Shown here: piece by piece, positions 388 to 22,231 of the stretch
Position numbering within the stretch: position 1 is the first letter of the stretch
Layout of the letters: each line of letters begins with the position of its first letter
Source: Escherichia phage moskry
Strand: one strand, 5' to 3'
Length of the DNA stretch: 64,000 bases
Sequence record: MN850651.1
Program-made: the position numbers and the translations under genes
Notes under the pieces: generated by a model
What the model saw: the letters and a program-made list of their open reading frames with translations, nothing else
Databases searched by the model: none
What the model was told of the DNA's origin: nothing

Positions 388-426
388 GATAGGTCTATAA
401 TAACATATCCTAAAAGCATGTACACT
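388..426 (-). promoter_or_regulatory. PeSL-like early promoter cassette (degenerate copy)
   Basis: Minus-strand reading gives TGTACA -35-like, ~17 nt, TATTAT -10-like, then leader CGAAACGAAATGAGTAAATTGGAGAATAAAATG shared with other copies. Confidence 0.45.
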
Positions 427-445
427 ACTTTTTAAAAATATTTTA

Positions 446-472
446 ACCCCCTAAAGGGACCCGAAGGTCCCC
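446..472 (-). terminator. Conserved stem-loop element (GGGACC-CGAA-GGTCCC), terminator-like, copy 1
   Basis: Perfect 6-bp stem just 3' of the stop of gene 477..758; near-identical element at 18815..18841; no clean U-run. Confidence 0.35.
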
Positions 473-476
473 ACAT

Positions 477-758
477 TTACTTATCACACTTAGCAACATA
501 ATTAGGCATATCACAGAATACGGAGCGAGTAACTACTCGACCCTTTGACCATGCTTCAGTTGCTTGTCCGGCCGTGCTATTAATATAGCTTGATTTAATG
601 TTCTCAATACCCTGAGAATGTGATGCATTTACCGAACCATTGGAAGGCCCAGAAGACTGGCTACCACCAGCTCCTGCACTACCGCTGGCTGCACCCGTGG
701 TAGCACCAACAGAGAATGCCATCATTACTGCGAATAAACCAATTACTAATTTTTTCAT
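477..758 (-). CDS. Small secreted or lipoprotein-like protein, Gly/Ser-rich
   Basis: ATG start; N-terminal MKKLVIGLFAVMMAFSVGA signal-like hydrophobic segment; 93 aa. Confidence 0.45.
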   Translation of the reverse strand: MKKLVIGLFAVMMAFSVGATTGAASGSAGAGGSQSSGPSNGSVNASHSQGIENIKSSYINSTAGQATEAWSKGRVVTRSVFCDMPNYVAKCDK

Positions 759-789
759 ATTTACCTCAAGTTAATGGTTATTTATCTAT

Positions 790-1779
790 TTATTTATAGT
801 AAGAATTATGATTTTCGAGATAGACTTGCTCAAGGAAATCATCCCAGAAACTCATATCTACTTTTTGTTGCATACCATTCTTGGCAGCTCGTTCTGATGC
901 TTGTTCAACTTGGTCAACGATATCTTCTAGGAATTCTTGTACAGTTTTAAACGTATGTTTACCAAGCTTAACATCGAGAATAAATGGAGCATCCTGAAGT
1001 GGGTAAACCAGGTCGCCGGTTTTGTAAATTTCTAATAGTTGAAGTCCACCACGACATGCATGACTCAATGCTTTCCAGTCAATACCTTCGTTGGCTTCTG
1101 CCTTACGAGCACGTTCACCATAGTTCTCTTCCAGTTTAACCAGGATGGCATTGAACTCTTTATTGGTTAACGTGTCTTGGAACTTACGGTCTAACAGATT
1201 ATAGAATGTTTGCTTACCTGTTTTCTCGTTTTCGGTTTCAACCCACGAAGCAAATTCACCTACAGGCAGAACATTCTTCATATGTGATAAACGAATTACT
1301 GCACCATTATCAAAGTATTGTCCCCATTCATTAGAACGTTTAAGGGCTTGACGAAGAACAGCCAGTCGAGAACCCTTGACACCGTATTTAGAAGCTTGCT
1401 TACGGACATACCCTAAATAAGATTTCATGTTAGTGGTATAGAAACGAGACCTGTTATCTTGAATATACTTCCATACATCAGGCAAATCAGATTTAACTAC
1501 TAGACTTTGTGGAGTGTGAAGCATATCTAATGCGACGGTTTCACCATCCGTAGCTAGTTTAAAGAAATATTTGAGACTATACAACTCATGGTCCACGTCG
1601 TCTTTTGTGTTCTTAGAAGATGTGTTATTCGTGTTCTTGCTCATATGTTCTTTAACGTTACCGGTCAAGATATCACGAGCATGAGGGACATAAATTTCTT
1701 TAAAATCAACGTCAGATTCTGGGGTAGACGTTCCATAAAGGTGGCTACCAAAGTAGCCTTTCATAATTGTTTTCATCAT
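790..1779 (-). CDS. Pol-beta-type nucleotidyltransferase-like protein
   Basis: 329 aa; ATG ATG start; N-terminal motif YFGSHLYGTSTPESDVDF fits the GS-x(9-13)-DxD signature of the nucleotidyltransferase fold. Confidence 0.55.
   Translation of the reverse strand: MMKTIMKGYFGSHLYGTSTPESDVDFKEIYVPHARDILTGNVKEHMSKNTNNTSSKNTKDDVDHELYSLKYFFKLATDGETVALDMLHTPQSLVVKSDLPDVWKYIQDNRSRFYTTNMKSYLGYVRKQASKYGVKGSRLAVLRQALKRSNEWGQYFDNGAVIRLSHMKNVLPVGEFASWVETENEKTGKQTFYNLLDRKFQDTLTNKEFNAILVKLEENYGERARKAEANEGIDWKALSHACRGGLQLLEIYKTGDLVYPLQDAPFILDVKLGKHTFKTVQEFLEDIVDQVEQASERAAKNGMQQKVDMSFWDDFLEQVYLENHNSYYK
791..798 (-). promoter_or_regulatory. Candidate late promoter (TATAAATA on minus strand)
   Basis: Plus strand reads TATTTATA about 33 nt upstream of ATG 758; matches T4 late promoter consensus. 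Confidence 0.35.
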
Positions 1780-2249
1780 TTAGCCTTATATTCAAGAGTA
1801 GGACAGACTTTTTCTTTACGAGCTTTAAGGTATTCGCCTATTAATGATTTCTTACGTTCAATAGGCTCAAGTCCATTTTTAATTCGTTCTTGGTTTTGTG
1901 CAATGAACTCAATTTCTTTATAATATTTTCTGTCGTTATATTTGTCTAACAACCAAGACGGACCAATTACCAACCCGGTAGCAATAAAAGCCATGACTGC
2001 TACCATTAAAATGCCTACACCGATTGAAGCCGGAACTAATGACCATAGACTGCTAAAAACAAAGAATTTAGTTAAAATTTCCTGGCCAATGATTGTGACT
2101 GCGGCTAAAATCGCAAATCCAATAATTGAAACAGCCAATACCGGGATTAACGTTTTCCAAAAATAAGCACACAACGTTTTCGGACGATTCCATGTACTAT
2201 TGAACGCGGCATAAAGTTTAAAGTGCCAAGAGTTTTCATTGATAATCAT
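1776..2249 (-). CDS. Membrane protein, hypothetical
   Basis: 157 aa; ATG start; two long hydrophobic segments. Confidence 0.5.
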   Translation of the reverse strand: MIINENSWHFKLYAAFNSTWNRPKTLCAYFWKTLIPVLAVSIIGFAILAAVTIIGQEILTKFFVFSSLWSLVPASIGVGILMVAVMAFIATGLVIGPSWLLDKYNDRKYYKEIEFIAQNQERIKNGLEPIERKKSLIGEYLKARKEKVCPTLEYKAK

Positions 2250-2258
2250 AATAATTCC

Positions 2259-2792
2259 TTATTTCAAAGTTGGGATAATAGAATCGAGATAAGCTTTAAG
2301 AGCAACTGCCTCATCTTTGTCTAATGTAATGATATGTTGACGAAGGTCATCAATTTGGCGAATAACTACGACATCACCATCTTCATAAGAAGGATTAACG
2401 CCTAGGACTGTTGTATAGTCAGGGCGGTCCTGATTTGTAATAAAAGCATTACGGCATTTAGCCCATTGAAGTTTGGCCTTTTTGGCTGTTTCAGATTCCA
2501 TTAATTCTTTCACCTTAGTGACAAATGTTTTCCAATTATTGATAGAAAAACATTCGTCTTCAGTTTCGATATTGGCTGCGTTGTAAAGACCAGGATAAAA
2601 ACGAACTTGGAGGTCTTCACCAATGTTAATTACCTCTCGACGACGTCCAGACGGATTGAGTTTCAAAATCTTGTCCAGTTCCATAGGAAGAATAGTAGCA
2701 GCATCATCTTCTTGTGTCAGAACATACACATAACCACGTTTTTCGATACATAAATCACCAAACAACTCGGTTGTTTCAATTACAGTTTTCAT
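2259..2792 (-). CDS. Hypothetical protein
   Basis: ORF track starts at TTG 2804; first ATG is codon 5 (MKTVIETT), giving 177 aa. Confidence 0.5.
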   Translation of the reverse strand: MKTVIETTELFGDLCIEKRGYVYVLTQEDDAATILPMELDKILKLNPSGRRREVINIGEDLQVRFYPGLYNAANIETEDECFSINNWKTFVTKVKELMESETAKKAKLQWAKCRNAFITNQDRPDYTTVLGVNPSYEDGDVVVIRQIDDLRQHIITLDKDEAVALKAYLDSIIPTLK

Positions 2793-2793
2793 A

Positions 2794-2973: not shown

Positions 2974-3099
2974 TTTACCATACTCGTTTCAATAAGATTC
3001 ACTATGCCGTTTACCATGTTATAAGTAAACATCGGATAATTGTATTGTACTACAACATAAGCGATAAGCAAAAGTTTCATTTTGTTCTCCGTTTGTTTT

Positions 3100-3139
3100 G
3101 ATAGGACTACTATAACATAGTCCTACCAAGATGTAAACT
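3100..3139 (-). promoter_or_regulatory. PeSL-like early promoter cassette
   Basis: Minus reading: GTTTACA, 17 nt, TATAGT; inverted repeat TAGGACTA/TAGTCCTA around -10; followed by leader CAAAACAAACGGAGAACAAAATG. Confidence 0.5.
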
Positions 3140-3341
3140 ACCGATTGTGTTTTAAATGTTGATAAAGTTCTTCAACTTGTTTAGGGTCCAAAACAATTAG
3201 GTCATTTTCTTGACGAAGATAAATCCATCCCTTATCCCCAGGTCCATTTTTACAAAACATCACCACCATATCATCTTCAGCGCTTTCAGGTAAAAGTTCA
3301 AGTACACCGTCTTCAGATTTTCCAGTATAATCGTAAAGCAT
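3138..3341 (-). CDS. Hypothetical small protein
   Basis: ORF 3138..3368; ATG at codon 10 (3341) has SD GAGGA and avoids overlap with the upstream gene; alternative ATG at 3368. Confidence 0.4.
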   Translation of the reverse strand: MLYDYTGKSEDGVLELLPESAEDDMVVMFCKNGPGDKGWIYLRQENDLIVLDPKQVEELYQHLKHNR

Positions 3342-3348: not shown

Positions 3349-3528
3349 TCACATAATCTCGTTAACATACATTTGCAATTCGGTGTGGGCGTCAGCCATC
3401 TTTTTCATAGCTCTGTTAATGTCGATGTCTCCATCTTCGCAACCATGAGCATTTTCCCAATCAGATACCGCATTAGCGTACTCTTCAATCAAAAACATTA
3501 ACTTAGAAATTTTTTCTTTACGTGACAT
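3349..3528 (-). CDS. Small protein at the rI.-1 position
   Basis: ORF track starts at TTG 3597 inside the upstream cassette; ATG at 3528 is preceded by SD GAGGAG; 59 aa. Confidence 0.45.
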   Translation of the reverse strand: MSRKEKISKLMFLIEEYANAVSDWENAHGCEDGDIDINRAMKKMADAHTELQMYVNEIM

Positions 3529-3532
3529 AACG

Positions 3533-3585
3533 TTCTCCTCTAGTAAGTAAGGTTTACTATAACACAACCTGAGGAGAAGTAAACT
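3533..3585 (-). promoter_or_regulatory. PeSL-like cassette with SD-containing stem
   Basis: Minus reading: GTTTACT, 17 nt, TATAGT; arms TTCTCCTC/GAGGAGAA, the 3' arm being the SD of the ATG at 3528. Confidence 0.5.
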
Positions 3586-3595
3586 GATAGATGCC

Positions 3596-3622
3596 AAAAA
3601 GCCCCAACCATAAGGAAGGGGC
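3596..3622 (-). terminator. Intrinsic terminator (minus strand)
   Basis: Stem AGCCCC/GGGGCT with A-run on plus strand (U-run on the minus transcript), 3' of the stop of rI. Confidence 0.6.
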
Positions 3623-3629
3623 TAGTAAA

Positions 3630-4157: not shown

Positions 4158-4184
4158 ATATACCTCTTGGTTAGATATTAGTAT

Positions 4185-4766
4185 TTATAACAACCCTGTC
4201 AAATCATTCCAATGCTTCCGGCATAATGACACATATCTATCGGTATCACCAATTTCAATTTGACTGCCATCTGTAATTGGAAGTCCGTCTTCCGTGACTC
4301 TAGCTACCATTGTGGCCTTTTTACCACAATGACAGACACCTTTAAGTTCAACAAGCTTATCAGCAATAGCCATTAATGCTTGAGAACCTTCAAATAGATT
4401 ACCTTTAAAATCTGTTCGTAGTCCATATGCCATTACCGGCACATTGTATACGTCAACAATACGACTAAGTTGATACACCTTTTCAGTAGTTAAGAACTGA
4501 GCTTCGTCAACAAATACACAGTGAATATCCTTTTGTGCTGCAGCCCATTTATAGAATTCAAAGATATCCATGTCTTTTGTAATTATATTGGCGTCCTGAC
4601 GAATACCAATACGAGAGACTATTTCACCTTTTGAATCGCGAGTATCAATAGCCGGTTTAAGAACTAATACACCCATGCCACGTTCTTTATAGTTATGTGC
4701 GGCAGTAAGTAATGAAGCAGACTTACCAGCGTTCATAGCGGCATATGTAAAAATTAAACTAGCCAT
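4185..4766 (-). CDS. tk: Thymidine kinase
   Basis: 193 aa; P-loop AMNAGKS; C-terminal CHCG..C zinc motif; same length and position as T4 tk. Confidence 0.9.
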   Translation of the reverse strand: MASLIFTYAAMNAGKSASLLTAAHNYKERGMGVLVLKPAIDTRDSKGEIVSRIGIRQDANIITKDMDIFEFYKWAAAQKDIHCVFVDEAQFLTTEKVYQLSRIVDVYNVPVMAYGLRTDFKGNLFEGSQALMAIADKLVELKGVCHCGKKATMVARVTEDGLPITDGSQIEIGDTDRYVSLCRKHWNDLTGLL

Positions 4767-5841: not shown

Positions 5842-6151
5842 CTAGACGGTCTACCATAGAATTGCATGCTGCCTTATCTTTAGGTTCCGCCACCGAGCAT
5901 TCTAATATTTGCCATTTTTTATAGTATCTTTTAATTAAGGTAGACGCCTTGAACCTACTAGACGCCCCATCTTTTTCTCCGTCTTTATACGCATATAACA
6001 ATTTTTGTGAAAAATCTACTTTACACTCTTGACTTTTACCACAATAATCAGACGCCGTTCTGTTTGTATACTCCGTTACATCAGTATATGTAGTATTAGC
6101 AAGAGCGTTAAATGAAACCAAGCCAACTATTAAAGCCAACATTTTGGTCAT
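5804..6151 (-). CDS. Secreted small protein with four Cys (same position and length as T4 vs, identity unverified)
   Basis: 115 aa; ATG start; N-terminal MTKMLALIVGLVSFNALA signal-like segment. Confidence 0.45.
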   Translation of the reverse strand: MTKMLALIVGLVSFNALANTTYTDVTEYTNRTASDYCGKSQECKVDFSQKLLYAYKDGEKDGASSRFKASTLIKRYYKKWQILECSVAEPKDKAACNSMVDRLVDSYNRGLAASD

Positions 6152-6698: not shown

Positions 6699-7157
6699 CT
6701 AGATTTTAATCACTGCTTTAGAAGCTTTTCCTGGTAGTCGTTTACTGTTAATAATAGCCATTCTGCATTGAAGAGTCTTCATTTTGAATGCCGGATTTTC
6801 GCGACAAACTGTAAGTCCCAACCAAAGATTTCCATCAGTTATTTCTAAACGGCCTGGACGGTATTCGACACCTTCGACAAAATCTTCATCAACATCTGGA
6901 CGTGCCGGCATTGATAAAAATTCTGCAACTTCTTTAACATGATTTTTTACTTTACGAAATAATTCAAAAACGTAATTCTCATCTATTTCTCTCTGGATGG
7001 CACGATCTAAGAGATGTTGAGAATACTTGATATGAAAGCCTGGTAGTCCAAGAGACTTTGCAGCATCTTTTATACTGGCATTTATTTTGCGGAACTCCGT
7101 TTCAAAGATTCGACGGAGTTTATTACGGCGGATAAAAACTTCCGAATTGATAGTCAT
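6699..7157 (-). CDS. regB: Site-specific RNA endonuclease RegB
   Basis: 152 aa; ATG start; long identical stretches to recalled T4 RegB (MTIN.EVFIRRNKLRR, YSQHLLDRAIQREID, GVEYRPGRLEITDGNLWLG, LQCRMAIINS.RLPGKASKAVIK). Confidence 0.85.
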   Translation of the reverse strand: MTINSEVFIRRNKLRRIFETEFRKINASIKDAAKSLGLPGFHIKYSQHLLDRAIQREIDENYVFELFRKVKNHVKEVAEFLSMPARPDVDEDFVEGVEYRPGRLEITDGNLWLGLTVCRENPAFKMKTLQCRMAIINSKRLPGKASKAVIKI

Positions 7158-7163
7158 TTTGAT

Positions 7164-7215
7164 TTCTCCTCTAGTTGACAGGTCTATAGTAACACAACTA
7201 GAGGAGATGTAAACT
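7164..7215 (-). promoter_or_regulatory. PeSL-like cassette with SD-containing stem (upstream of regB)
   Basis: Minus reading: GTTTACA, 18 nt, TACTAT; 13-bp arms TCTCCTCTAGTTG/CAACTAGAGGAGA, the 3' arm being the regB SD. Confidence 0.5.
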
Positions 7216-7217
7216 GC

Positions 7218-7427
7218 TTATTCTTGGAATGGTGTGAGTTTTCCAGCTATCGAACAAATTTCTACCATTGCAGGATAAAACTCTTTCACTTGTTCAAGGC
7301 GCTGGACAGCGTACCGCATTTCGCCTTCTTCAAGACAAGCCACCTGGTCATCGAGCAAATATTTATGGTAACCAGTACAGGCTTCACTAATGATACGTTG
7401 GAATTCTTGCAAACTTTCAATTTTCAC
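7218..7427 (-). CDS. Hypothetical small protein
   Basis: 69 aa; apparent GTG start with SD GAGGA 9 nt upstream. Confidence 0.4.
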   Translation of the reverse strand: MKIESLQEFQRIISEACTGYHKYLLDDQVACLEEGEMRYAVQRLEQVKEFYPAMVEICSIAGKLTPFQE

Positions 7428-9288: not shown

Positions 9289-9618
9289 TTATACTCTAGG
9301 CTTTTGAGCTTGTTTGGTATTGGATTCCCATGCGGCTTTGGTAATTTTGTTAGCGGCATAACCAAAGGCATTAGATAGAACACCTTTAGAGTTGAATACA
9401 TCCAATCCAATAAGTACACCGGCTGTGTTAAATTTAGGAGCAAAGTACGCATTAGTTTTAGAAAGAGCTTTTTTCAATTCAGGGTCTTGAACCAAGCTAT
9501 CAAAAACACCTTTACTATTTACTTTATATGTTACTTTGGGATTTTTACCTTCTTCGATAGCAGCTTTCTGTTCCGCAGATAATGTAACTTCAGTGATAAA
9601 CTCCTGATATGTTTTCAT
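9289..9618 (-). CDS. Internal-protein-like (capsid targeting sequence) protein
   Basis: 109 aa; N-terminus MKTYQEFITE matches the recalled T4 internal-protein CTS (MKTYQEFIAE) with an L/I-x-E cleavage context. Confidence 0.6.
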   Translation of the reverse strand: MKTYQEFITEVTLSAEQKAAIEEGKNPKVTYKVNSKGVFDSLVQDPELKKALSKTNAYFAPKFNTAGVLIGLDVFNSKGVLSNAFGYAANKITKAAWESNTKQAQKPRV

Positions 9619-9643: not shown

Positions 9644-9958
9644 TTATTCTTTAGGGAAGTTTTTAGAGTATGCGTCATAAAGTTTATTACCGATGCGACG
9701 GAAGACTTTAGCTGCAAAACGGTTTTCAGGGTTTTTAATCATGATTTGCATCATGTAAGTTCCTGCATCCGAAAGAGCTTCTTCATAGTACCCATTAATT
9801 TCTTTAAGAGTCCTACGTTTACCACCAGGACCATCAACAGTAATTTTCCATTTACCTGTAGAAGTGCGGCTCGGTGGCTCAACTTGTTCAATCCAAATAT
9901 AACCACCTTCAACGCGTTGGTTGGCGGATTCTGCAATAAATTCTTTATACGTTTTCAT
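9644..9958 (-). CDS. Internal-protein-like (CTS) protein
   Basis: 104 aa; N-terminus MKTYKEFIAE; basic body. Confidence 0.6.
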   Translation of the reverse strand: MKTYKEFIAESANQRVEGGYIWIEQVEPPSRTSTGKWKITVDGPGGKRRTLKEINGYYEEALSDAGTYMMQIMIKNPENRFAAKVFRRIGNKLYDAYSKNFPKE

Positions 9959-9979
9959 TTTTGTTTCCTTGTTTGTTTT

Positions 9980-10019
9980 GATAGAGTAATTATACCATAT
10001 TAATACTTAAGCGTAAACA
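9980..10019 (-). promoter_or_regulatory. Early promoter cassette (PeSL-like)
   Basis: Minus reading: GTTTAC, about 18 nt, TATAAT; directly 5' of the CTS gene starting at 9958. Confidence 0.5.
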
Positions 10020-10288: not shown

Positions 10289-10702
10289 TTAGTAAATTGA
10301 TTTACCATAGTATTTGTACCAAGTCGGACGTTGAGCAATTTTTTCATCTAAGCGTGCTTGACTTATCGCAATGGACGCTTCGGACGGGACATAATTATTA
10401 CGAAATTCGGCAGGGATGTCGGAAATATCCTGGACTGTCGTGTCCTTGATTTTGAAACCACGTTTCAAGCATTCAGCGATTAGCTCGATTTGTCGTAAAC
10501 GTAAAAATTCGAGTTTGTCGTAAAAGAATGTTACGTGACCTGTGCCTAAGATAAATGTTGGAGAGATTTTAAAATCCTTTACACGTTTACCGTTTTGAAC
10601 ATGTTTACGGACTGCACCAAATACGCGTGGTAATTCACGATACTCAGCCATAAGATGTTGGTCGGCCAGTTCAGAAACAAGTGTTAAATTGATACGGGTC
10701 AT
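10289..10702 (-). CDS. denV: Endonuclease V (pyrimidine-dimer DNA glycosylase)
   Basis: ATG at codon 5 of the ORF track; 137 aa; near-identical to recalled T4 DenV ([35 protein letters not shown]...). Confidence 0.9.
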
Positions 10703-10707
10703 AATTT

Positions 10708-10760
10708 CCTCCAAGTAGTTGATGAATGTATAGTATCAAAACCCTTGGAGGAAGTAAACA
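10708..10760 (-). promoter_or_regulatory. PeSL-like cassette with SD-containing stem (upstream of denV)
   Basis: Minus reading: GTTTAC, TACTAT-like -10; arms CCTCCAAG/CTTGGAGG, the latter being the denV SD. Confidence 0.5.
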
Positions 10761-11042
10761 CTATTTTTCTGAAGCGCCTGAAATATATTTTTCAAGACGT
10801 TGTTTCATTAGCGAGCCGTTCTTAGCGATTTCTTCCGGTTTATCGCACATACGTAACAAGGCTTCAAGCTTAGCGATATCGCTAGTACGTTCAAATTTGC
10901 GAGTATCTATCTTACTAGCAAGTTCAGAAATACGTGCTAGTAGACTTTCGGCTTCAACCAAAGCTGCACCTAGCTTAGTTGCAAATGTGTCAGTAGCTTC
11001 GTTAAGAATAGATTCTGATAAAAATTCACTATATGTTTTCAT
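10761..11042 (-). CDS. Internal-protein-like (CTS) protein
   Basis: ATG at codon 6 ([10 protein letters not shown]); 93 aa; 4-nt overlap with the 3' end of gene e. Confidence 0.55.
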
Positions 11043-13421: not shown

Positions 13422-13727
13422 TTATTTTCCTCGACATTCTTTAATGAAATTTTCTAGATTGGTAGATTCAATAGCTTTTTTACGAGCTTCTGCGTGTTCT
13501 TCTTCGGACAATTTACGTTTATAATTGACCCAGACATTATGGTCGAAACCAGACGTGGCATATAATAACAAAGCTCCAACGAATAGCAAAAATGGTGATA
13601 AAAATATACAACCAGGAACACCATCCATACTGTAAGCCTTTTGTAATACTGCAACAGAAAGAGTTGCGTAAAAAGGTGATGCAAGTATTGTTAAAAGACC
13701 AATTCGGTTGGTTTCGCCTAATTTCAT
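13422..13727 (-). CDS. Membrane protein, hypothetical
   Basis: 101 aa; ATG with SD GAGGAG; two hydrophobic helices. Confidence 0.45.
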   Translation of the reverse strand: MKLGETNRIGLLTILASPFYATLSVAVLQKAYSMDGVPGCIFLSPFLLFVGALLLYATSGFDHNVWVNYKRKLSEEEHAEARKKAIESTNLENFIKECRGK

Positions 13728-13746
13728 AATATTCTCCTCATGTTTT

Positions 13747-13786
13747 AATAGGACTACTATAACATAGCCCTATCAGTTTGTACACT
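13747..13786 (-). promoter_or_regulatory. PeSL-like early promoter cassette
   Basis: Minus reading: GTGTACA, 17 nt, TATAGT; imperfect inverted repeat TAGGGCTA/TAGTCCTA. Confidence 0.5.
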
Positions 13787-13986
13787 TATTTTGACATTTC
13801 TTCGATGTCACGACGATACCCATCACGAACTTCACGAAGAGCTTCAAGGCCACACATAGGCTCGATACCAGTAATGTGAACTTGATTAATCTGATACTCT
13901 ACATCTTCTAACTGAGCGAAAACATAACGACGTTCTGCTGCACAACCAGGTTTAGCTTTACCGAAACGTTTATTCAAAGTAGTCAT
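13786..13986 (-). CDS. Hypothetical small protein
   Basis: ORF track begins at GTG 14004; ATG at codon 7 (13986) follows SD GGAG; 66 aa. Confidence 0.4.
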   Translation of the reverse strand: MTTLNKRFGKAKPGCAAERRYVFAQLEDVEYQINQVHITGIEPMCGLEALREVRDGYRRDIEEMSK

Positions 13987-14015
13987 TTTTATATCTCCAT
14001 TCACTCATTTGTTTT

Positions 14016-14055
14016 GATAGGTCTATAGTATCAACAACTACAGACCTTGTAAACT
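14016..14055 (-). promoter_or_regulatory. PeSL-like early promoter cassette
   Basis: Minus reading: GTTTACA, 17 nt, TACTAT; inverted repeat GGTCTGTAG/CTATAGACC; leader CAAAACAAATGAGTGAATGGAGATATAAAAATG. Confidence 0.5.
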
Positions 14056-15051: not shown

Positions 15052-15303
15052 TTAAATTTCACGACATGCGATATTATATTCATCCCAGAGGTCATCATGT
15101 GAAGCCTCTACCAATGGAACGATTGTACCGTTTATGTCTTCATTATAAGGGCAAATTGTACAGTGCGCATCTTCGAATCGGATGCCTTTGTGTTCAGATT
15201 TTTTATAACGCATATCGAATATCTTTGCAAACTTTTCACGAGTAATGGTTTTACCAACTACTTCGGTTCCGATACTTTCGTAATAAATCATTGTGGACTC
15301 CAT
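15052..15303 (-). CDS. Hypothetical small protein
   Basis: 83 aa; ATG at 15303 is embedded in the cassette leader; alternative ATG at 15291 (codon 5) has SD GGAG. Confidence 0.4.
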   Translation of the reverse strand: MESTMIYYESIGTEVVGKTITREKFAKIFDMRYKKSEHKGIRFEDAHCTICPYNEDINGTIVPLVEASHDDLWDEYNIACREI

Positions 15304-15310
15304 TTAATTT

Positions 15311-15350
15311 GATAGGACTACTATAACATAGCCCTATCTTGTTGTAAACT
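15311..15350 (-). promoter_or_regulatory. PeSL-like early promoter cassette
   Basis: Minus reading: GTTTACA, 17 nt, TATAGT; inverted repeat around -10. Confidence 0.5.
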
Positions 15351-16206: not shown

Positions 16207-16238
16207 CATTATAACTAATCATTTGAGAAGCGTAAACA
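16207..16238 (-). promoter_or_regulatory. Early promoter (sigma70-like)
   Basis: Minus reading: GTTTAC, about 18 nt, TATAAT; 5' of the paralog triplet. Confidence 0.5.
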
Positions 16239-16246
16239 GCATAAAT

Positions 16247-16639
16247 TCAGTTCAGGCTTTTGCATCTTATCTCCTTAACGAATTCCATGGCTTCGTCATA
16301 TTCATATTTTTTAACAGCCTCGTCATATTGAGCTCTTGCTTTTGCACATTGAATTTTCCATTCGCGTACTCGAGCTCTATAATGTCGTCCTTGGTACCAA
16401 TATCCCACCCAATTAATAGGCATTAATAAAAATGGCACAATAAACGACCCGGCTATAATAAGTAAAAACACTGCATCAGACGATATAACTTCACTAGAAT
16501 CTAAAACAGCTCCTATAATCATAAAGATTAAAAATGCTAAAGCTAAAATAGGGCCAAATAGTACTTCGTTTGGGATTAATTTACGTTTGTATTCGTATGC
16601 CCAGGGCTTAATTGGCATGTACAGGGTTGGCTTTGACAT
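16247..16639 (-). CDS. Membrane protein, hypothetical
   Basis: ORF track 16247..16669 starts at TTG; first ATG at codon 11; hydrophobic core then a basic C-terminus; start uncertain. Confidence 0.35.
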   Translation of the reverse strand: MSKPTLYMPIKPWAYEYKRKLIPNEVLFGPILALAFLIFMIIGAVLDSSEVISSDAVFLLIIAGSFIVPFLLMPINWVGYWYQGRHYRARVREWKIQCAKARAQYDEAVKKYEYDEAMEFVKEIRCKSLN

Positions 16640-17259: not shown

Positions 17260-17853
17260 TTATTTCAAAGAGTTAATATATTCTTGTACATCTGCAGAAG
17301 TGGTTTCGACACCAGCTGGAGTGCCATTGAACGTTTCAACACGAGTCAGAGTGTCTTCGATATCAACCTTAGTCAGTGCAGCGATTTCAATTACATCATC
17401 AGCCGTAGAGATACCAAGGGCATTAGCTGCTCGAGTTTCACGAATGTATTCGAGTTTGATTGCCAGATTCTGACGAGCATCGTCAAGTTCAACCACCTTA
17501 CGAGCAATTTCAATTCGCATAGCGGCATACCCGTCAGCTTTTGTATTAAGTTGTTCGGCAGTTCGACGATACAGAAGACCAAGCTTAGCATGCATGGTAA
17601 CATCTTGTCCTTCGGCCAGGAGCTTACGAATTTCACGTTCCTTAGAAGCGGCTTGCTTGTTCTTTTCATTAACAAGTTCGCGAATACGTTTTTCTTCATT
17701 AATAGATTTAACAGAAGCCGTTTTTAGTTCTTTGATTTGGGTAATCAACTTATCTGCAGCTGCGTTATACTGTTCTTCGACAGTCAGATTTTTAGCCATA
17801 GCAGTACCCAGTTTAGTGCGGATGAATTCAACAAGTTTCTTCAGTGTGTTCAT
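17260..17853 (-). CDS. Coiled-coil protein (possibly PspA/IM30-like)
   Basis: ATG at codon 6 (MNTLKKL); about 197 aa; predominantly helical heptad-like sequence; family assignment tentative. Confidence 0.4.
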
Positions 17854-17887
17854 ATTATTACCTTTCAATTGGTGGTTTATTATCCAA

Positions 17888-17923
17888 CGAGAGCATTATA
17901 CTCTGCTCTCAAGAGTTTGTAAA
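17888..17923 (-). promoter_or_regulatory. Early promoter with flanking inverted repeat
   Basis: Minus reading: TTTACA, 17 nt, TATAAT; arms GAGAGC/GCTCTC flank the -10. Confidence 0.5.
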
Positions 17924-18151
17924 TTATTTTTTAATCAAATTGACATAAAACTTGGCGTCTTCGGGGTGCATGCCTTCGCAGTATTCTTCAACCATGAACT
18001 TCTTAACAGCTTCATAAGGACCACTCAGATTAAGCTCGGTTGTCCAGAACTTGGAATCTTGTACTGAATCGATACGAACTTCAGGGTGACGGTTGCGAAT
18101 AACTTCTTCTGTGTATTCATAATCAACGACATCAATACTAACTTTAGCCAT
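17924..18151 (-). CDS. Hypothetical small protein
   Basis: 75 aa; ATG start preceded by GGAAAACAAA leader. Confidence 0.45.
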   Translation of the reverse strand: MAKVSIDVVDYEYTEEVIRNRHPEVRIDSVQDSKFWTTELNLSGPYEAVKKFMVEEYCEGMHPEDAKFYVNLIKK

Positions 18152-18170
18152 TTTGTTTTCCTCTTGATTT

Positions 18171-18210
18171 GATAGGACTACTATAACATAAACTTACTTA
18201 GATGTAAATT
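18171..18210 (-). promoter_or_regulatory. PeSL-like early promoter cassette
   Basis: Minus reading: ATTTACA, 17 nt, TATAGT; left arm GATAGGACTA conserved, right arm degenerate. Confidence 0.45.
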
Positions 18211-18362
18211 ATTTCAACGTCACCTTTAGCTGCTTTATAACCTTCAGCCCAAGATACAACAGAGTTTTTATCTGAGGATTCAAATTCAGGCATTGGACTT
18301 TCACCAATATTCACACAGTATGTTTCTTCATTTTCATCGAACCAAATAATTAAAGTAGTCAT
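18198..18362 (-). CDS. Small protein (54 aa), below ORF-track cutoff
   Basis: ATG at 18362 lies in the conserved leader GTCATTTTGTTTACTCCTCTG (plus strand), also found at 55251; 3' end overlaps the downstream cassette. Confidence 0.3.
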   Translation of the reverse strand: MTTLIIWFDENEETYCVNIGESPMPEFESSDKNSVVSWAEGYKAAKGDVEIIYI

Positions 18363-18370
18363 TTTGTTTA

Positions 18371-18422
18371 CTCCTCTGTAGTTGTTAAGTCTATAGTATC
18401 ACCATCCTTGGTGATTGTACAT
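18371..18422 (-). promoter_or_regulatory. PeSL-like cassette, near-duplicate of 55261..55312
   Basis: Plus-strand CTCCTCTGTAGTTG(T/A)TAAGTCTATAGTATCA shared with the copy at 55261; TGTACA -35-like. Confidence 0.45.
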
Positions 18423-18430: not shown

Positions 18431-18736
18431 TTAATTTTTCCAACTTAACAACTTGTAGTGTCCTTCATTCATACGTGGTTTATCCCAAGAAATACTAATA
18501 TATGATTCACTGTCAATAGAAATCGCCGGGTTTTTCTCTACCGTAAGACCTTCACTTTCCAGCCATTCAATAGTATTTGCGCATAAATCAGAAGAACACC
18601 TCATCGGGAACCGGCAAGATTTTTCACCTTTAGCTGCAGTGTTATACATCTTTTCTAAAATACGCTTTTGCACGTTTTTAAAAATAGTTTCAGCAGATTC
18701 TTCAGATTTTTTATTCAGTTCAGTGTAAAGACTCAT
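18431..18736 (-). CDS. Hypothetical protein
   Basis: 101 aa; ATG start; Cys-rich centre (CRFPMRCSSDLC). Confidence 0.45.
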   Translation of the reverse strand: MSLYTELNKKSEESAETIFKNVQKRILEKMYNTAAKGEKSCRFPMRCSSDLCANTIEWLESEGLTVEKNPAISIDSESYISISWDKPRMNEGHYKLLSWKN

Positions 18737-18755
18737 AATATTCTCCTCATGTTTT

Positions 18756-18794
18756 GATGGGTCTATAGTAACACATCTAGGGAAGAAGTAAACA
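18756..18794 (-). promoter_or_regulatory. PeSL-like early promoter cassette
   Basis: Minus reading: GTTTAC, spacer, TACTAT-like -10. Confidence 0.45.
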
Positions 18795-18814: not shown

Positions 18815-18841
18815 ACCCCCTAATGGGGACCGAAGTCCCCA
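18815..18841 (-). terminator. Conserved stem-loop element (GGGGAC-CGAA-GTCCCC), copy 2
   Basis: Same CCCCCTAA-GGGGACCGAAG-TCCCCA unit as 446..472, again just 3' of a gene stop. Confidence 0.35.
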
Positions 18842-18845
18842 TTCT

Positions 18846-19478
18846 TTACTTACGAGTTTTTGCATACTGAGCAGCGTCAGCAGCCAAACGACCTGCCTGA
18901 CGAAGTTTTTCTTTAATCTCATCATGAAGTGGTTGAGTATACTTCAAACCTTCGATAGTCAAATAAAGACGATAAAGGTCTGGGGTATCAAGGTTGTTGA
19001 TATGTTGGCCATTACGAAGACTATTGAATTCACGAACGAGTGAAGATGTATCGGATTCAATATCACGAACAAGCGAAGATAGTTGTTTATATTTTTTTTC
19101 CAGGCTAGAAGTATCAAACTTAAGAGCAGGAGCTTTAGGAGTTGCTTTTACTTCAGGCTTAGGCTTAGGTTCAGGTTTTGCTATTGCTTTAGGGGTCGCA
19201 GGTTTAGGAATGGTAGGAGCAGGTTTTACTTTAGGCGAACCCGATTTAGCAGAAACACCACCACTAACAATATCTTTGAATGCTTTAGAAGCTCTGTAAT
19301 ATTCTTTTTGGCTGGAAGTGTCGATACCGTACATGGCTTGAACGTTTTTGAAAAACTCTGTACTAGTTTTTGTACCAGAAATAGCATCGTAAGCAGCTTG
19401 CCATTTCTCTTTTGTCATACGTACGCCGGCTTCGGTGATTACTTCCGTTTCGGCTAAAAATTCATTAAAAGTATACAT
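18846..19478 (-). CDS. Internal-protein-like (CTS) protein with Pro/Lys-rich linker
   Basis: 210 aa; N-terminus MYTFNEFLAE is CTS-like; central PKVKPAPTIPKPATPKAIAKPEPKPKPEVKATPKAP low-complexity tract. Confidence 0.55.
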   Translation of the reverse strand: MYTFNEFLAETEVITEAGVRMTKEKWQAAYDAISGTKTSTEFFKNVQAMYGIDTSSQKEYYRASKAFKDIVSGGVSAKSGSPKVKPAPTIPKPATPKAIAKPEPKPKPEVKATPKAPALKFDTSSLEKKYKQLSSLVRDIESDTSSLVREFNSLRNGQHINNLDTPDLYRLYLTIEGLKYTQPLHDEIKEKLRQAGRLAADAAQYAKTRK

Positions 19479-19513
19479 TGATGGTCCTTAGAAAGTGGGT
19501 TTATTGTTTACTA

Positions 19514-19521
19514 TATTTATA
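19514..19521 (-). promoter_or_regulatory. Late promoter (TATAAATA on minus strand)
   Basis: Plus strand TATTTATA about 36 nt upstream of ATG 19478. Confidence 0.5.
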
Positions 19522-19522
19522 C

Positions 19523-19550
19523 AAAAAAGCCCCAACCTTTCGGAAGGGGC
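19523..19550 (-). terminator. Intrinsic terminator at the end of the tRNA cluster
   Basis: Stem GCCCC/GGGGC with a 6-A run on plus strand (U-run on the minus transcript). Confidence 0.6.
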
Positions 19551-19593
19551 TATATACCTTGTCGGGGTTCCACCTGCTAAGGCAAGTGTTTGT

Positions 19594-19685: not shown

Positions 19686-19853
19686 TCAAAAACGCTACTC
19701 GGCTTACGGCAAAGATATTTCCTCGAATCGATAATTCGGTGCGCCGTTTCTGCTGTGATGTAAGGGGATATTAACAAATCGTAAAGATTTATTAAGACCA
19801 GTCCTTACTCAGGGAACATCAGTCCGACGACTTACCGGTAGCGACCCGGCTTC

Positions 19854-20198
19854 TTATTTTGACATATCATCAATTTGCTCTCGACGCCGACGCCATAGAT
19901 TAATCGCTTCATTAACACATTCGGCGTTTGGTATATGACGGCAATAATATAATGATTCGCGTTTCTGGAACCGATGTTGCAATGGGATTTCGTTTAAAAG
20001 GTCTTTACGGTCAAAGTATTCAAAACTAGTTAACCCAGAACGGTTTTTAAGGAACTTCCAATGACCGAATTCATTTTGAACATAGATGTAATCTGCATGT
20101 TGGTATAACAAATTAATCAATCGGTCTGAAATAACTGTATCATGTTCGTTAAAATAAAACGTTAAATCATGAACTACTAAGTAAACATTACCTTTCAT
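19854..20198 (-). CDS. Hypothetical protein within the tRNA cluster
   Basis: ORF track start at 20246 overlaps tRNA-Arg; ATG at codon 17 (MKGNVYLVV) gives 114 aa. Confidence 0.4.
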   Translation of the reverse strand: MKGNVYLVVHDLTFYFNEHDTVISDRLINLLYQHADYIYVQNEFGHWKFLKNRSGLTSFEYFDRKDLLNEIPLQHRFQKRESLYYCRHIPNAECVNEAINLWRRRREQIDDMSK

Positions 20199-20216
20199 AT
20201 TTTCCTCACTTGAAGT

Positions 20217-20293
<77 letters not shown>

Positions 20294-20299
20294 AATATA

Positions 20300-20373
20300 T
20301 GACCCAGACCAGATTCGAACTGGTAACCTTTCCCTTATGAGGGGACTGCTGCTAACCATTGAGCTACAGGGCC
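20300..20373 (-). tRNA. tRNA with CAU anticodon (Ile or Met type)
   Basis: 74 nt; T arm ACCAG-TTCGAAT-CTGGT; anticodon loop CTCATAA; acceptor GGCCCTG/CTGGGTC with one mismatch; CCA not encoded. Confidence 0.65.
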
Positions 20374-20452
20374 TAAATAACTTTCTATTATGAAAGGCAC
20401 TTTAGAGCACCTTTGGTAATAGAGGGTATGAATTAATAATAACACATAATTC

Positions 20453-20968
20453 TTAAAGCAAATCAATCATTTTAACAGTCGGCAAAACGATTTCTTCTTC
20501 AATATAAGCAAATTCAACACATTCAACTACACGCAAGAAATCATAATCATAATATTCAGAAGCATTGCCAAGAATATCAGTGAGACCTTCTGATACCAAA
20601 TATCCATTCTCACGGAACAGGTCAAATACACGTGATTCGTCTTCTTCAGATTTATTACCGAGGTCGACTTCAATATCAAAGACCTTTTTAATGAATTCTG
20701 GATAAAGATGGTCTGAGAACAGTCCTTCAACCAAGTATTCATAGATTAAAAGCGAGCAATCACTGAATAGTGTATTACCACAGTAACGTTCAGCTTTAGT
20801 ACTAGAATGACGACTCTTAAATTTCTTCAAGAGATATTTAAACTGTTGGAGCTCATGCTCTTCTACACCAAATAATGTTTTGGTTTTATAGTTGTCACCG
20901 TCATTTTCCGAAGTAGTGACATCAATTACGTAACCCTTAGGAATTGTACTGCCTAAACAAATATTCAT
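20453..20968 (-). CDS. Hypothetical protein
   Basis: 171 aa; ATG start; acidic. Confidence 0.45.
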   Translation of the reverse strand: MNICLGSTIPKGYVIDVTTSENDGDNYKTKTLFGVEEHELQQFKYLLKKFKSRHSSTKAERYCGNTLFSDCSLLIYEYLVEGLFSDHLYPEFIKKVFDIEVDLGNKSEEDESRVFDLFRENGYLVSEGLTDILGNASEYYDYDFLRVVECVEFAYIEEEIVLPTVKMIDLL

Positions 20969-20972
20969 TTAC

Positions 20973-21263
20973 TCACCGTACCATATTAATGTAATTATAT
21001 TCAATGCAACGTAATTTCAAAGGATTCTTGAAAATATCATATTCAAGAGGGCCTTTTTCTGTTTCAATAAAGAAATCAAAGTTCACACTATTAAATTTGC
21101 GGTCTTCCCAAAGTAATTTAACCTGTGAAGATGAACGGTCGACGTAAACCTTTTCAACTTCAAAGTGGGTCAAAATACCATAGTAATCGACTAGTGCTTT
21201 AGCTGCAGCTCGGTCGCTTTCATATCCATTCTCAACGGATTTTACCTTAGCATAAAGAATCAT
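20973..21263 (-). CDS. Hypothetical protein
   Basis: 96 aa; ATG start. Confidence 0.45.
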   Translation of the reverse strand: MILYAKVKSVENGYESDRAAAKALVDYYGILTHFEVEKVYVDRSSSQVKLLWEDRKFNSVNFDFFIETEKGPLEYDIFKNPLKLRCIEYNYINMVR

Positions 21264-21622
21264 GAATGTTCCACCATTTCAAAGGTATGAGCATCAACAA
21301 TATGATACCAGTCAAAATTTTCTTCTGCGTTTTTATAAATTTCGCGAAGAGCCTCAACAGTTTTTCCTGTAGCAACAAGATCATCAATACCGCCAAGAGG
21401 ATAACAGTCGTAACCAGCAAACAGAAGGAAATTAATAGTTTCTGTAGGTTCTGGATGCAGAATACCGTTATCATCTACCACTTCAAAGAAAGTGTAAGAA
21501 GGAGTACAAGTTTTAATCCAAGCCCAGGCTTGAGCTGCTGAATCAAATGGCCTGCGTATCAAACGACAATCAGGGTCTTTAGAAGGATTTGCTTCAAAAT
21601 CTGCATATACATGATATTTCAT
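21260..21622 (-). CDS. Hypothetical protein
   Basis: 120 aa; ATG start overlapping the upstream stop. Confidence 0.45.
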   Translation of the reverse strand: MKYHVYADFEANPSKDPDCRLIRRPFDSAAQAWAWIKTCTPSYTFFEVVDDNGILHPEPTETINFLLFAGYDCYPLGGIDDLVATGKTVEALREIYKNAEENFDWYHIVDAHTFEMVEHS

Positions 21623-21808
21623 TTACTCACCTTTTGCAATTTTATCCATAACGATAGCGATTAAGCCGATTAGAAATGCTACTACCAATGAGATAGAATT
21701 TTCTGTTGTTGTCAGTAGTCCACAAATGAATCCTACAAACATCGAAAAACTAAAAGCCATTGAAGCAATTACTACAGCAACATTACGAATCAGTTCAGCG
21801 CGTTTCAT
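21623..21808 (-). CDS. Small membrane protein
   Basis: ORF track start at 21829 is the ATG inside the cassette leader; ATG at codon 8 follows SD GGAG; 61 aa with one transmembrane helix. Confidence 0.4.
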   Translation of the reverse strand: MKRAELIRNVAVVIASMAFSFSMFVGFICGLLTTTENSISLVVAFLIGLIAIVMDKIAKGE

Positions 21809-21836
21809 TTTATTTCTCCATTTACTCATTTGTTTT

Positions 21837-21876
21837 GATAGGACTACTATAACATAGTCCTATCAGCATGTAAACT
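21837..21876 (-). promoter_or_regulatory. PeSL-like early promoter cassette (perfect copy)
   Basis: Minus reading: GTTTACA, 17 nt, TATAGT; perfect 10-bp inverted repeat GATAGGACTA/TAGTCCTATC; leader CAAAACAAATGAGTAAATGGAGAAATAAAATG. Confidence 0.55.
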
Positions 21877-21878
21877 AC

Positions 21879-22166
21879 TTACAGAAGAGTTTTTGCAATA
21901 ATTTTAAGCTGAGCTACAGAAATATGCTTAGCTTTAAACAGTGCAGTCTCTTCAGCCGGAGAGATAACAATAGTAGCGCCATCTTTCTTAGCAGACCATC
22001 CATCCCCTAAGTAAACAGTACCTTTTACTTCTTCGCCGTCAACCAGGCCAATCATTGGTTTACCCTCACGTCCTTTATTTGCTTTAATAACTTCGGAAGT
22101 AAGGGTTGCTTCGGTTAGAGTAGAAACATTAGCATCAGGTGATATAAATTCTTTATAGGTTTTCAT
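21879..22166 (-). CDS. Internal protein I-like (CTS) protein
   Basis: 95 aa; N-terminus MKTYKEFIS; adjacent to 57B as ipI is in T4; length matches recalled T4 IPI. Confidence 0.55.
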   Translation of the reverse strand: MKTYKEFISPDANVSTLTEATLTSEVIKANKGREGKPMIGLVDGEEVKGTVYLGDGWSAKKDGATIVISPAEETALFKAKHISVAQLKIIAKTLL

Positions 22167-22191
22167 TTTATTTCCTTGAGGTCGTTTATTT

Positions 22192-22231
22192 GATAGGATG
22201 ATAGTAACACACCATCATCCTTATGTAAACT
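22192..22231 (-). promoter_or_regulatory. PeSL-like early promoter cassette
   Basis: Minus reading: GTTTACA, 17 nt, TACTAT; inverted repeat GATGATGGTG-like around -10. Confidence 0.5.

Follow-up and report, generated by a model that had tools for sequence, protein, structure and literature searches.

Early-promoter cassettes with embedded stems in the early region of Escherichia phage moskry

Results

Repeated promoter elements in the early region

The DNA studied here, called the window throughout, is a stretch of 64,000 nucleotides of Escherichia phage moskry (sequence record MN850651.1), and its early region carries a family of short repeated elements in which a promoter, often with an embedded stem-loop, stands directly in front of a small gene. 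Using megablast against a phage collection, we found that positions 1-22500 are about 96% identical, over 90-99% of the query, to the Mosigvirus phages SSE1, HY126, JS09 and p000v; judged by this similarity, the window is Mosigvirus DNA from an RB69/JS09-like T-even phage. By transferred annotation, 1-22.7 kb is a minus-strand early region with the gene order nrdC.9 - tk - vs - regB - vs.x - internal protein (IP) genes - denV - e - nudE - e.x - tRNAs - tRNA.x - ipI, followed by 57B/57A/1/3 and then by late genes. In T-even phages, the stretch from nrdC to ipI is a classical 'hyperplastic' early region.

A strict regular expression combined with a repeat finder located 16 minus-strand elements whose -10 hexamers end at positions 397, 3109, 3556, 7186, 9989, 10730, 13756, 14025, 15320, 17895, 18180, 18393, 18765, 21846, 22201 and 55282 (c397, c3109 and so on below), each directly 5' of an open reading frame (ORF). 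We then constructed a weight matrix from two blocks, 10 nt at the -35 and 22 nt that cover the -10 and the bases past it, with spacers of 16-18 allowed; at a threshold of at least 14 bits it returned exactly these 16 minus-strand copies from both strands of the 64 kb (128 kb) and none from the plus strand. In leave-one-out tests, 14 of the 16 copies scored 19-44 bits; as controls, the best of 40 shuffled strands reached 15.8 bits and the real plus strand a maximum of 12.9 bits. The copies are thus more alike than random AT-rich DNA, and the reality of the family is directly supported. The c9989 copy is borderline (13.9 bits) and c17895 scored -1.0, and c17895 is therefore a generic sigma70 promoter with a hairpin rather than a member of the sequence family. 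A generic sigma70 consensus scan is uninformative in such AT-rich DNA and was not enriched (74 sites vs 65 ± 8 expected), so that the signal is that of a specific family and not of AT-richness.

The original prediction, which was made by a model from the sequence alone, counted at least 17 copies; the weight matrix accounts for 16, and a 17th element, c16208, is weak and corresponds to the predicted RB69 early promoter (Pe) Pe:70143 with a score of 4.9. The combination that it had described, GTTTACA or TGTACA, a spacer, and TATAGT, TACTAT or TATAAT directly 5' of minus-strand ORFs, was borne out by both the regular expression and the weight matrix, with TATTAT as a further -10 and a spacer of 16-17 nt between the hexamers instead of the 17-18 nt proposed. 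One further candidate, c4175 (4175-4202), was ruled out as a family member: it has the late-promoter motif TATAAATA, and its spacing matches the predicted RB69 late promoter Pl:58753 upstream of rI.1. The family is concentrated, with 15-16 copies within the 22 kb of the nrdC-tk-regB-denV-e-tRNA-ipI region and one copy in the other 41 kb. A search of IMG/VR with the pattern GTTTACA-N13-TGTTATAGT gave 21 matches, essentially all in unrelated contigs without more family members.

Architecture of the elements and identity of the promoters

Read on the minus strand, the elements consist of an A/T-rich tract (A+T 0.72 vs 0.62 in the background), (G)TTTACA or TGTACA, a 16-17 nt spacer, a TGn-extended -10 (TATAGT, TACTAT, TATAAT or TATTAT), a conserved block (AGTCCTATCAAA or AGACCTATCAAC), an A-rich leader, a Shine-Dalgarno sequence (SD) and an ATG. 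Information content reaches 2.0 bits in TTAC and, within the -10, at TA and the last T; it is 1.7 bits at the TG, which is found at -15/-14 in 15 of 16 copies; each of the 12 positions after the -10 holds 1.1-1.5 bits. The seventh nucleotide after the -10 is A in 13 of 16 copies, and the predicted start of transcription, about 7 nt beyond the hexamer, is the A within the conserved CCTATCAA. Every copy has its ATG 27-41 nt past the -10, with GGAG at most 16 nt from it in 12 of 16. Two pairs of copies also have leaders in common, c18393 with c55282 (46 nt at 98%) and c13756 with c18765. The leader that had been proposed to be shared by several copies occurs exactly in c21846 and in near-identical form in c14025 and c397.

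Comparison with other T-even phages identifies these elements as counterparts of early promoters. In the homologous region of RB69, 18 early promoters had been predicted (Nolan 2006, Additional file 3), and 16 of them coincide with elements, as orthologues of window copies. The same architecture is found at orthologous sites in T4, including a regB promoter in the same position, and T4 regB is described as having a typical early promoter. Orthology to the RB69 and T4 early promoters is therefore directly supported, and the T4-type sigma70 early-promoter architecture suggested at the outset holds, down to the GTTTAC -35 and the TGn-extended -10. The T4 GenBank record AF158101 has no annotated promoter features.

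We also searched for the consensus of the RegB/S1 site, GGAGRAYARAA. With at most one mismatch there were 16 matches (10 ± 3.4 expected), and exact matches were confined to the leaders of c397 and c3109. A full RegB site in every cassette is thus unsupported, even though GGAG is present in most of them. The longest ORFs at 15291-15303 and 21808-21829 begin at upstream in-frame ATGs inside the cassette leader (ATGGAG.. and ATGAGTAAATGGAG..). Cassette anatomy and the gene lengths of JS09 indicate that ATG 15291 and ATG 21808 are the true starts, and cassettes serve annotation in this way, as marks of true start codons.

Embedded stems are selected, probably at the level of RNA

Folding revealed two kinds of stem embedded in the promoters. 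Seven copies (c3109, c13756, c14025, c15320, c17895, c21846 and c22201) have a significant short hairpin, here called class A, which holds the -10 in its loop or 3' arm and ends at about +3; the RNA free energies (dG) are -12.6 to -18 (p<=0.005 vs dinucleotide shuffles), and DNA parameters give z-scores of -3.0 to -5.8. In class B, which the original prediction had missed, a longer stem runs from early spacer bases (TCTCCTC...) to the SD (GAGGAGA); it is found at c7186, c10730 and c3556 and weakly at c18765. In c18393, a hairpin is confined to the spacer. Five copies (c397, c9989, c18180, c55282 and c16208) have no embedded stem, and a stand-alone hairpin lies upstream of c397, c3556 and c18765. 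In all, 11-12 of 17 copies, about two thirds, carry an embedded stem. The earlier statement that most copies have an 8-13 bp inverted repeat straddling the -10 is right in that roughly 11 of 17 have a stem, in seven of them a significant short hairpin around the -10; the arms GATAGGACTA/TAGTCCTATC, given as common, are present in four copies plus one decayed copy, and other copies use other arms. In every stem-bearing copy, the 5' arm is upstream of the predicted start site. The transcript made from the promoter itself would therefore be without the stem, which would form only in read-through RNA from the upstream gene.

Selection on the stems was examined with 161 matrix matches from the window, eight Mosigvirus relatives, T4, JS10 (Dhakavirus), Enterobacter phage MY742 and Serratia phage 4S, reduced to 49 non-redundant promoters from five genera. 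Native spacers with their own downstream sequences had a mean minimum free energy (MFE) of -9.0, with 51% at or below -10. When spacers were exchanged between promoters, the mean MFE was -5.15 with 10% at or below -10, and none of 2000 permutations reached the native mean. As a negative control, the same -35/-10 pattern in unrelated IMG/VR contigs gave 0 to -7.5 kcal/mol. At one and the same position we counted at least 10 unrelated pairs of arms, so that complementarity is kept and sequence is not. For example, the stem of the T4 ipI promoter (GATGAGGTA/TACCTCATC) is unlike that of the window ipI (AGGATGAT/ATCATCCT), and at the e.6 site other lineages have the arms GTGTAGGAG/CTCCTACAC where the window has GAGAGC/GCTCTC. 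T4 also has stems at e.7 (TAGGCTCAT/ATGAGCCTA) and, over 15 bp, at mobD.2. Covarying complementarity is thus observed directly.

Folding of the sense strand is more stable than that of the antisense strand by 2.56 kcal/mol (Wilcoxon p=0.001), because the stems use G·U pairs; in composition-matched shuffles the difference was -0.23 ± 0.44, and 0 of 60 reached the real value. This sense-strand bias argues for an RNA structure on the sense transcript and against a protein operator or a DNA cruciform. The idea of palindromic operators for a dimeric DNA-binding protein, such as a phage factor that shuts off early promoters at the -10, draws on the symmetry centred on the -10, on the arms shared by four copies, and on the still unexplained mechanism of T4 early-promoter shut-off (PMC3014915, PMC2988021). 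Against it stand the many unrelated arm sequences at one position, the G·U pairs on the sense strand only, which are unexpected for a site in duplex DNA, the varying position and length of the stems (confined to the spacer, spanning the -10 or reaching the SD), and the one third of promoters without any repeat, and we regard it as extremely improbable. A DNA cruciform or hairpin, acting as a recombination hot spot (for example, as a target of endonuclease VII) or as a supercoiling-dependent modulator of promoter opening, would agree with the significant folding of single strands under DNA parameters and with the clustering of breakpoints at cassettes described below. However, a cruciform needs both strands to pair, yet the strands are asymmetric; DNA-parameter stabilities are just -6 to -9 kcal/mol; crossovers fall at the -35 or in the shared -10 block and not specifically in loops; and the mutual exclusion with upstream RNA terminators, reported next, points to a role in the transcript. 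We consider the cruciform very unlikely.

Class A stems and upstream terminators exclude each other

Among the 49 promoters, none of the 25 with an embedded stem has a strong hairpin within 70 nt upstream, vs 12 of 24 stemless promoters (Fisher p=3e-5). The upstream hairpins of stemless promoters are mostly GC-rich with a tetraloop and a T run, and the stand-alone hairpins 5' of c397, c3556 and c18765 fit the criteria for intrinsic terminators. In addition, upstream stop codons often abut the -35, and any 3' signal of the upstream gene must therefore overlap the promoter. The exclusivity with terminators is a direct observation, and it suggests that class A stems may set the 3' boundary of the upstream unit, whether as an attenuator, a pause site or a barrier to exonucleases. 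Accessibility of the ribosome binding site (RBS) was unchanged between the promoter's own transcript and the read-through context for class A stems, which rules them out as occluders of the RBS.

The embedded stems could instead be plain Rho-independent terminators that serve the upstream genes and overlap the next promoter by chance. They replace stand-alone terminators, strong terminator activity has been measured for one RB49 stem-loop (PMC2839356), and promoter-coupled terminators are reported to be widespread in bacteria (bioRxiv 10.64898/2026.08.19.745784). However, no U tract follows any embedded stem (the next sequence is ATCAAAACAAA) and none was called by the intrinsic-terminator scan, so that true termination is doubtful. 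The embedded stems are also AT-richer and weaker than the stand-alone terminators nearby, and their geometry is unlike that of bacterial coupled terminators, in which the stem lies over the -35 and the T tract before the -10. Ordinary termination is in our judgement unlikely.

Class B stems at regB and denV

At regB, we compared nine distinct lineages of RegB relatives taken from IMG/VR and phage records. In all nine, the spacer pairs with the SD region (dG -14 to -21), with a constant CTCC/GGAG core, and the four pairs adjoining the core show 2-4 Watson-Crick types, that is, compensatory changes. This covariation was read from pair tables anchored on GGAG; MAFFT with RNAalifold on the regB promoters recovered the SD part only, the stems being of unequal length and out of register. 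In Serratia phage 4S, the regB spacer pairs with the start codon region instead of the SD.

At denV, 55 distinct upstream regions fall into two geometries, and in both the 5' arm is upstream of the predicted start. In the first, the spacer pairs with the SD (window TTCCTCCAAG/CTTGGAGGAA; T4 TCTCCTGTAG/CTACAGGAGA; MY742-like TCTCCGTTTG/CAAACGGAGA). In the second, a segment from the -10 into the discriminator pairs with the SD and the AUG; it is seen in IMG/VR loci L055, L061, L062, L070-L072, L076 and L084, at about 330-410, where the gene's own transcript likewise is without the 5' arm. Predicted RBS accessibility was 0.65 on the own transcript vs 0.43 on read-through RNA for regB and 0.71 vs 0.30 for denV, and a drop of this kind was confined to class B. 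Secondary structure is known to inhibit RegB, and the SD of T4 denV resists RegB in vivo. We searched the literature for reports of RBS sequestration at regB or denV and found none.

Cassettes are sites of gene gain and loss

BLAST chains of window positions 1-23500 against eight Mosigvirus relatives gave 32 breakpoint clusters. Across 57 tiled minus-strand genes, a breakpoint was found at 10 of 16 cassette-bearing junctions and at 10 of 40 other junctions (Fisher p=0.010, odds ratio 5), in agreement with the proposal that the cassettes could mediate gene shuffling. Two events are informative in detail. First, 13773..14048, which comprises ORF 13786-14004 and one cassette, is missing in p000v, LNA2 and phiEC1 (and, judged by promoter spacing, in RB69); p000v, LNA2 and phiEC1 have one chimeric cassette, made of the UP element and -35 of c14025 and the spacer, -10 and leader of c13756. 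Second, where the window has the single chimeric c397, LNA2, ECO111 and RB69 carry two cassettes with an extra gene (RB69 ORF102c) between them; the insertion at c397 measures 254 bp, with the crossover in the shared ATGTTATTATAGACCTATC. In both events both ends are inside cassettes and in the same register, and the chimeric cassettes are directly observed.

Other cases involve the same elements. Between ipI and 57B, RB69 has one more IP gene that comes with a cassette of its own, and the counterpart of c22201 fronts this extra IP gene; in two Tequatrovirus-like contigs, the e.7 promoter is fused to the leader of e.6. In total, a cassette lies inside or at the edge of 9 of 23 relative-specific segments. 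Serratia phage 4S (L010) has at 6001-6040 a 40-nt copy of c15320 that is 95% identical, although the surrounding genes are too diverged for megablast; the cassette may be under very strong constraint or may have moved horizontally.

These data also bear on whether the likeness of the elements could be the convergence of strong sigma70 promoters, with hairpins as by-products and an indel link that merely reflects indels in intergenic DNA. The unenriched generic sigma70 scan and the modest breakpoint enrichment over the gene-junction null, with more than half of the indels at no cassette, would agree with convergence. Against it, sequence conservation continues past the -10 and leaders are shared up to the first codons (as in c18393/c55282 and in the 40-nt 4S copy), spacers prove co-adapted with their downstream sequences in the swap test, and the chimeric cassettes at indels are in exact register, so that we hold convergence to be highly improbable.

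Inventory of copies and neighbouring features

The copies are listed in Table 1. The c55282 copy lies apart from the others; its spacing matches RB69 Pe:109605, and its neighbours are the major capsid gene 23 (53361-54929) and gene 24 (55353-56636). To judge by its setting, it looks like the insertion of a cassette plus gene into the late region. T4 has segD, in opposite orientation, at this position, and a bidirectional hairpin GGGAGACCGAAGTCTCCC comes after the 89-amino-acid ORF.

Table 1. Cassette copies and associated features of the window, all on the minus strand
Element	Position	Promoter and leader	Stem	Stability	Breakpoints and surroundings
c397	356..425 (-)	TGTACA N16 TATTAT; leader with GGAGAATAAAA; ATG at 358; 43 bits	none embedded	MFE -3.9, p=0.32	
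Terminator-like hairpin	445..478 (-)		stand-alone, GC-rich; GGGGACCTTCGGGTCCC + T run		just 5' of c397
c3109	3078..3138 (-)	ATG at 3080	class A, GGTAGGACTA/TAGTCCTATC (3100-3127), around -10	dG -18.0, z -6.5	rearrangement vs relatives, 3156-3179
c3556	3526..3584 (-)		class B, TTCTCCTC (3571-3578) with GAGGAGAA (3533-3540, SD); 8+5 bp	dG -13.9, p=0.09	upstream terminator repeat 3591-3624; 608-bp insertion in ECO111 at 3595-3609
c7186 (regB promoter)	7155..7214 (-)		class B, 13 bp, TCTCCTCTAGTTG/CAACTAGAGGAGA (7165-7207), covers SD	dG -20.5, p=0	7215-7219, in all 8 relatives
c9989	9956..10018 (-)	TTTACG N17 TATAAT	no hairpin		5' of internal-protein-like ORF; = RB69 Pe:64193
c10730 (denV promoter)	10700..10759 (-)		class B, 10 bp, TTCCTCCAAG/CTTGGAGGAA (10706-10753), covers SD	dG -18.9, p=0	
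c13756	13725..13785 (-)		class A, GATAGGGCTA/TAGTCCTATT (13747-13774)	dG -14.9, p=0	left end of 13773..14048 deletion
c14025	13984..14054 (-)		class A, AGGTCTGTAG/CTATAGACCT (14019-14046)	dG -15.5	right end of 13773..14048 deletion
c15320	15289..15349 (-)	ATG at 15291	class A, GATAGGGCTA/TAGTCCTATC (15311-15338)	dG -16.0	
c16208	16208..16237 (-)	TTTACG N17 TATAAT; weak generic promoter-like site, doubtful member			16237-16249, 250-bp indel
c17895 (e.6 promoter)	17851..17924 (-)	TTTACA N17 TATAAT	class A, GAGAGC/GCTCTC (17889-17910)	dG -12.6	
c18180 (frd.3)	18149..18209 (-)		3' arm TAGTCCTATC kept, 5' arm decayed, therefore no hairpin	dG 0.0	
c18393	18360..18422 (-)	leader family D18	ATCACCA/TGGTGAT (18398-18415), within spacer	dG -8.4, p=0.02	
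c18765	18734..18793 (-)		weak class B pairing		terminator-like hairpin upstream at 18822-18843; breakpoints 18750, 18799
c21846 (tRNA.4)	21806..21875 (-)	ATG at 21808	class A, perfect, GATAGGACTA/TAGTCCTATC (21837-21864)	dG -17.7, DNA z -5.8	21814-21877
c22201 (internal-protein gene, ipI)	22164..22230 (-)		class A, AGGATGAT/ATCATCCT (22195-22221)	dG -15.4	
c55282	55249..55311 (-)	drives 89-aa ORF 54982-55251	no -10 hairpin		between genes 23 and 24

Several other repeats were noted. A GC-rich terminator-like hairpin (AAAAAGCCCCAACC..GGAAGGGGCT; family D13) has three copies, at 3591-3624, 19519-19552 and 62249-62282; the first two coincide with the breakpoints 3595-3609 and 19519, and terminators may therefore also act as recombination sites. 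A 30-nt block is repeated five times (9589-9618, 9929-9958, 11013-11042, 19449-19478 and 22137-22166); it is the reverse complement of ATGAAAAC.TAT.A.GA.TT.., which encodes MKTY.EFI.., and we take it to be the conserved N-terminal capsid-targeting leader of T-even internal proteins. A 288-nt unit occurs in two tandem copies, 78% identical, at 58893-59468 (family D2), presumably an internal duplication within a late structural gene. An Rfam search of the window returned two tRNAs only, at 20220-20293 and 20300-20373, and relatives have insertions of 710-930 bp (extra tRNAs or a homing endonuclease) at this site, 20209-20373.

Discussion

We consider it probable that the elements are T-even early-promoter cassettes of the published promoter-early stem-loop (PeSL) type, with stems that form only in read-through RNA and with a role in recombination. 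In this explanation, host sigma70 RNA polymerase would bind the A/T-rich tract, the GTTTACA -35 and the TGn-extended -10; the transcript would start about 7 nt downstream, and its short A-rich leader would supply a small early gene with both its GGAG SD and its start codon. Complementarity between the spacer and sequence 3' of the -10 is seen in roughly two thirds of copies, and the stem would form only in RNA that comes from the upstream gene. A class A stem, of 6-13 bp around the -10 and ending at about +3, would mark the 3' boundary of the upstream unit and replace a conventional terminator where intergenic regions are very short. In class B, which comprises regB, denV and the gene behind c3556, pairing of the spacer with the SD or the start codon would leave the gene translatable from its own early transcript and occluded on read-through RNA. 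The cassettes, as direct near-repeats of 60-90 bp, would allow homologous recombination between them to delete, insert or replace small genes. In this account, the precise positions of the starts and what the stems do biochemically are inferred.

Several observations weigh against this explanation. Four to five of the 17 copies (c9989, c18180, c55282 and c16208 among them) have neither a stem nor an upstream terminator, and the class B pairing of c3556 is not significant alone (p=0.09). Paralogous and orthologous copies are partly non-independent in the swap and exclusivity tests. The missing U tract counts here as well, and a literature search for genome-wide maps of T4 transcription start sites, 3' ends or Term-seq found none. 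For the recombination role, breakpoints exceed the gene-junction null only modestly (p=0.01, 8 relatives), and 14 of the 23 relative-specific segments have no cassette; their sites are overlapping stop/start junctions, the IP N-terminal leader, terminator repeats and tRNA or homing-endonuclease sites.

A bolder proposal, which we offer tentatively and judge slightly more apt to fail than to hold, is that these early promoters act as origin-dependent switches, a gene being open when carried on the immediate-early RNA from its own promoter and closed when carried on RNA from upstream. Translation of regB and denV would then be confined to the first minutes, their GGAG would be shielded from RegB on read-through RNA, and class A stems would insulate neighbouring units. 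If so, regB and denV would be the early-promoter counterpart of the late-promoter hairpin gating of e, soc and I-TevI, kept with compensatory changes across several genera. Polymerases that pause at a class A stem would sit on the downstream promoter, conceivably adding to the unexplained shut-off of early promoters.

The cassettes would give dozens of small early genes each a strong, self-contained expression signal, and they would explain the plasticity of the region, in that neighbouring cassettes recombine and move genes together with their own promoter and RBS. The findings on the stems lead to testable hypotheses on how overlapping early T-even transcripts are separated and timed, and they may bear on the poorly understood early shut-down.

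The closest known system is the PeSL. In RB49 and phi1, it is a strong sigma70-like promoter with a stem-loop, mostly between the -35 and -10 or overlapping the -10, that ends in an SD and start codon; promoter and terminator activity were measured, and mini-circles were found (Arbiol 2010, PMC2839356). PeSLs were later extended to PST/T4 and nt-1/KVP40 and proposed for probably all T4-like phages (Comeau 2014, PMC4122927). The likeness to PeSLs that had been noted at the outset thus has a sound basis in print, and the elements show all the sequence features that define PeSLs: both are dispersed composites of about 60-100 bp in hyperplastic early regions, 5' of small ORFs, with AT tract, -35, -10, stem-loop, SD and ATG, and in both, indels and replacements between close relatives fall at the elements and leave chimeras. 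Unlike the polyG/polyC stems of RB49 PeSLs, the window stems are AT-richer (e.g. GATAGGACTA) and without a U tract. The published PST/T4 stems lie just upstream of the promoter (PMC4122927), whereas many of those in the window, and in T4 on re-inspection, lie around the -10. We found no published PeSL description for Mosigvirus (RB69/JS09 type) in the literature.

For RB69, 58 early promoters have been predicted, with C at -3 to -1 (Nolan 2006, PMC1524935). The window elements share with the RB69 and T4 early promoters the GTTTAC -35, the TGn -10, the UP-like A/T tract and conserved positions near +1; that study treats the sites as promoters only, with no mention of stem-loops, palindromes, inverted repeats or a role in rearrangement. 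Shuffling of IP genes in T-even phages is also known (Repoila 1994, as cited in PMC4122927). The window IP genes (9.2-10.3 kb and 21.9-22.2 kb) are similarly replaced between relatives, with breakpoints in conserved flanks; unlike in cassette exchange, the breakpoints at 9588-9595 and 22144 are in the conserved N-terminal coding leader (MKTY..EFI..) and not in the promoter.

Two further systems resemble the stems. As in the bacterial promoter-coupled terminators (Fletcher, bioRxiv 10.64898/2026.08.19.745784), the stem, a putative 3' boundary of the upstream unit, overlaps the next promoter and saves intergenic space. In the bacterial case the stem is on the -35, the T tract comes before the -10 and the RNA 3' end is about 10 bp upstream of the start, whereas the window stems extend across the -10 and the start site and have no T tract. 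In T4, promoters inside hairpins gate the translation of e, soc, 39, 25, 26, I-TevI and segB (review PMC2988022). As there, the 3' arm at regB and denV has the SD or AUG, the predicted proximal start is inside the hairpin, and only proximal transcripts would have a free RBS; c3556 fits this pattern marginally. However, all reviewed cases are late promoters that delay translation (PMC2988022), whereas the internal promoters of regB and denV are of the early type, and translation would therefore be confined to the immediate-early period. Taken together, PeSL/T4-type cassettes and the RB69 promoter predictions are already known, and this study adds the evidence for stems in read-through RNA, their exclusivity with terminators, a conserved RBS-sequestering variant at regB and denV, and examples of cassette gain and loss; hairpin gating by an early promoter is possibly new.

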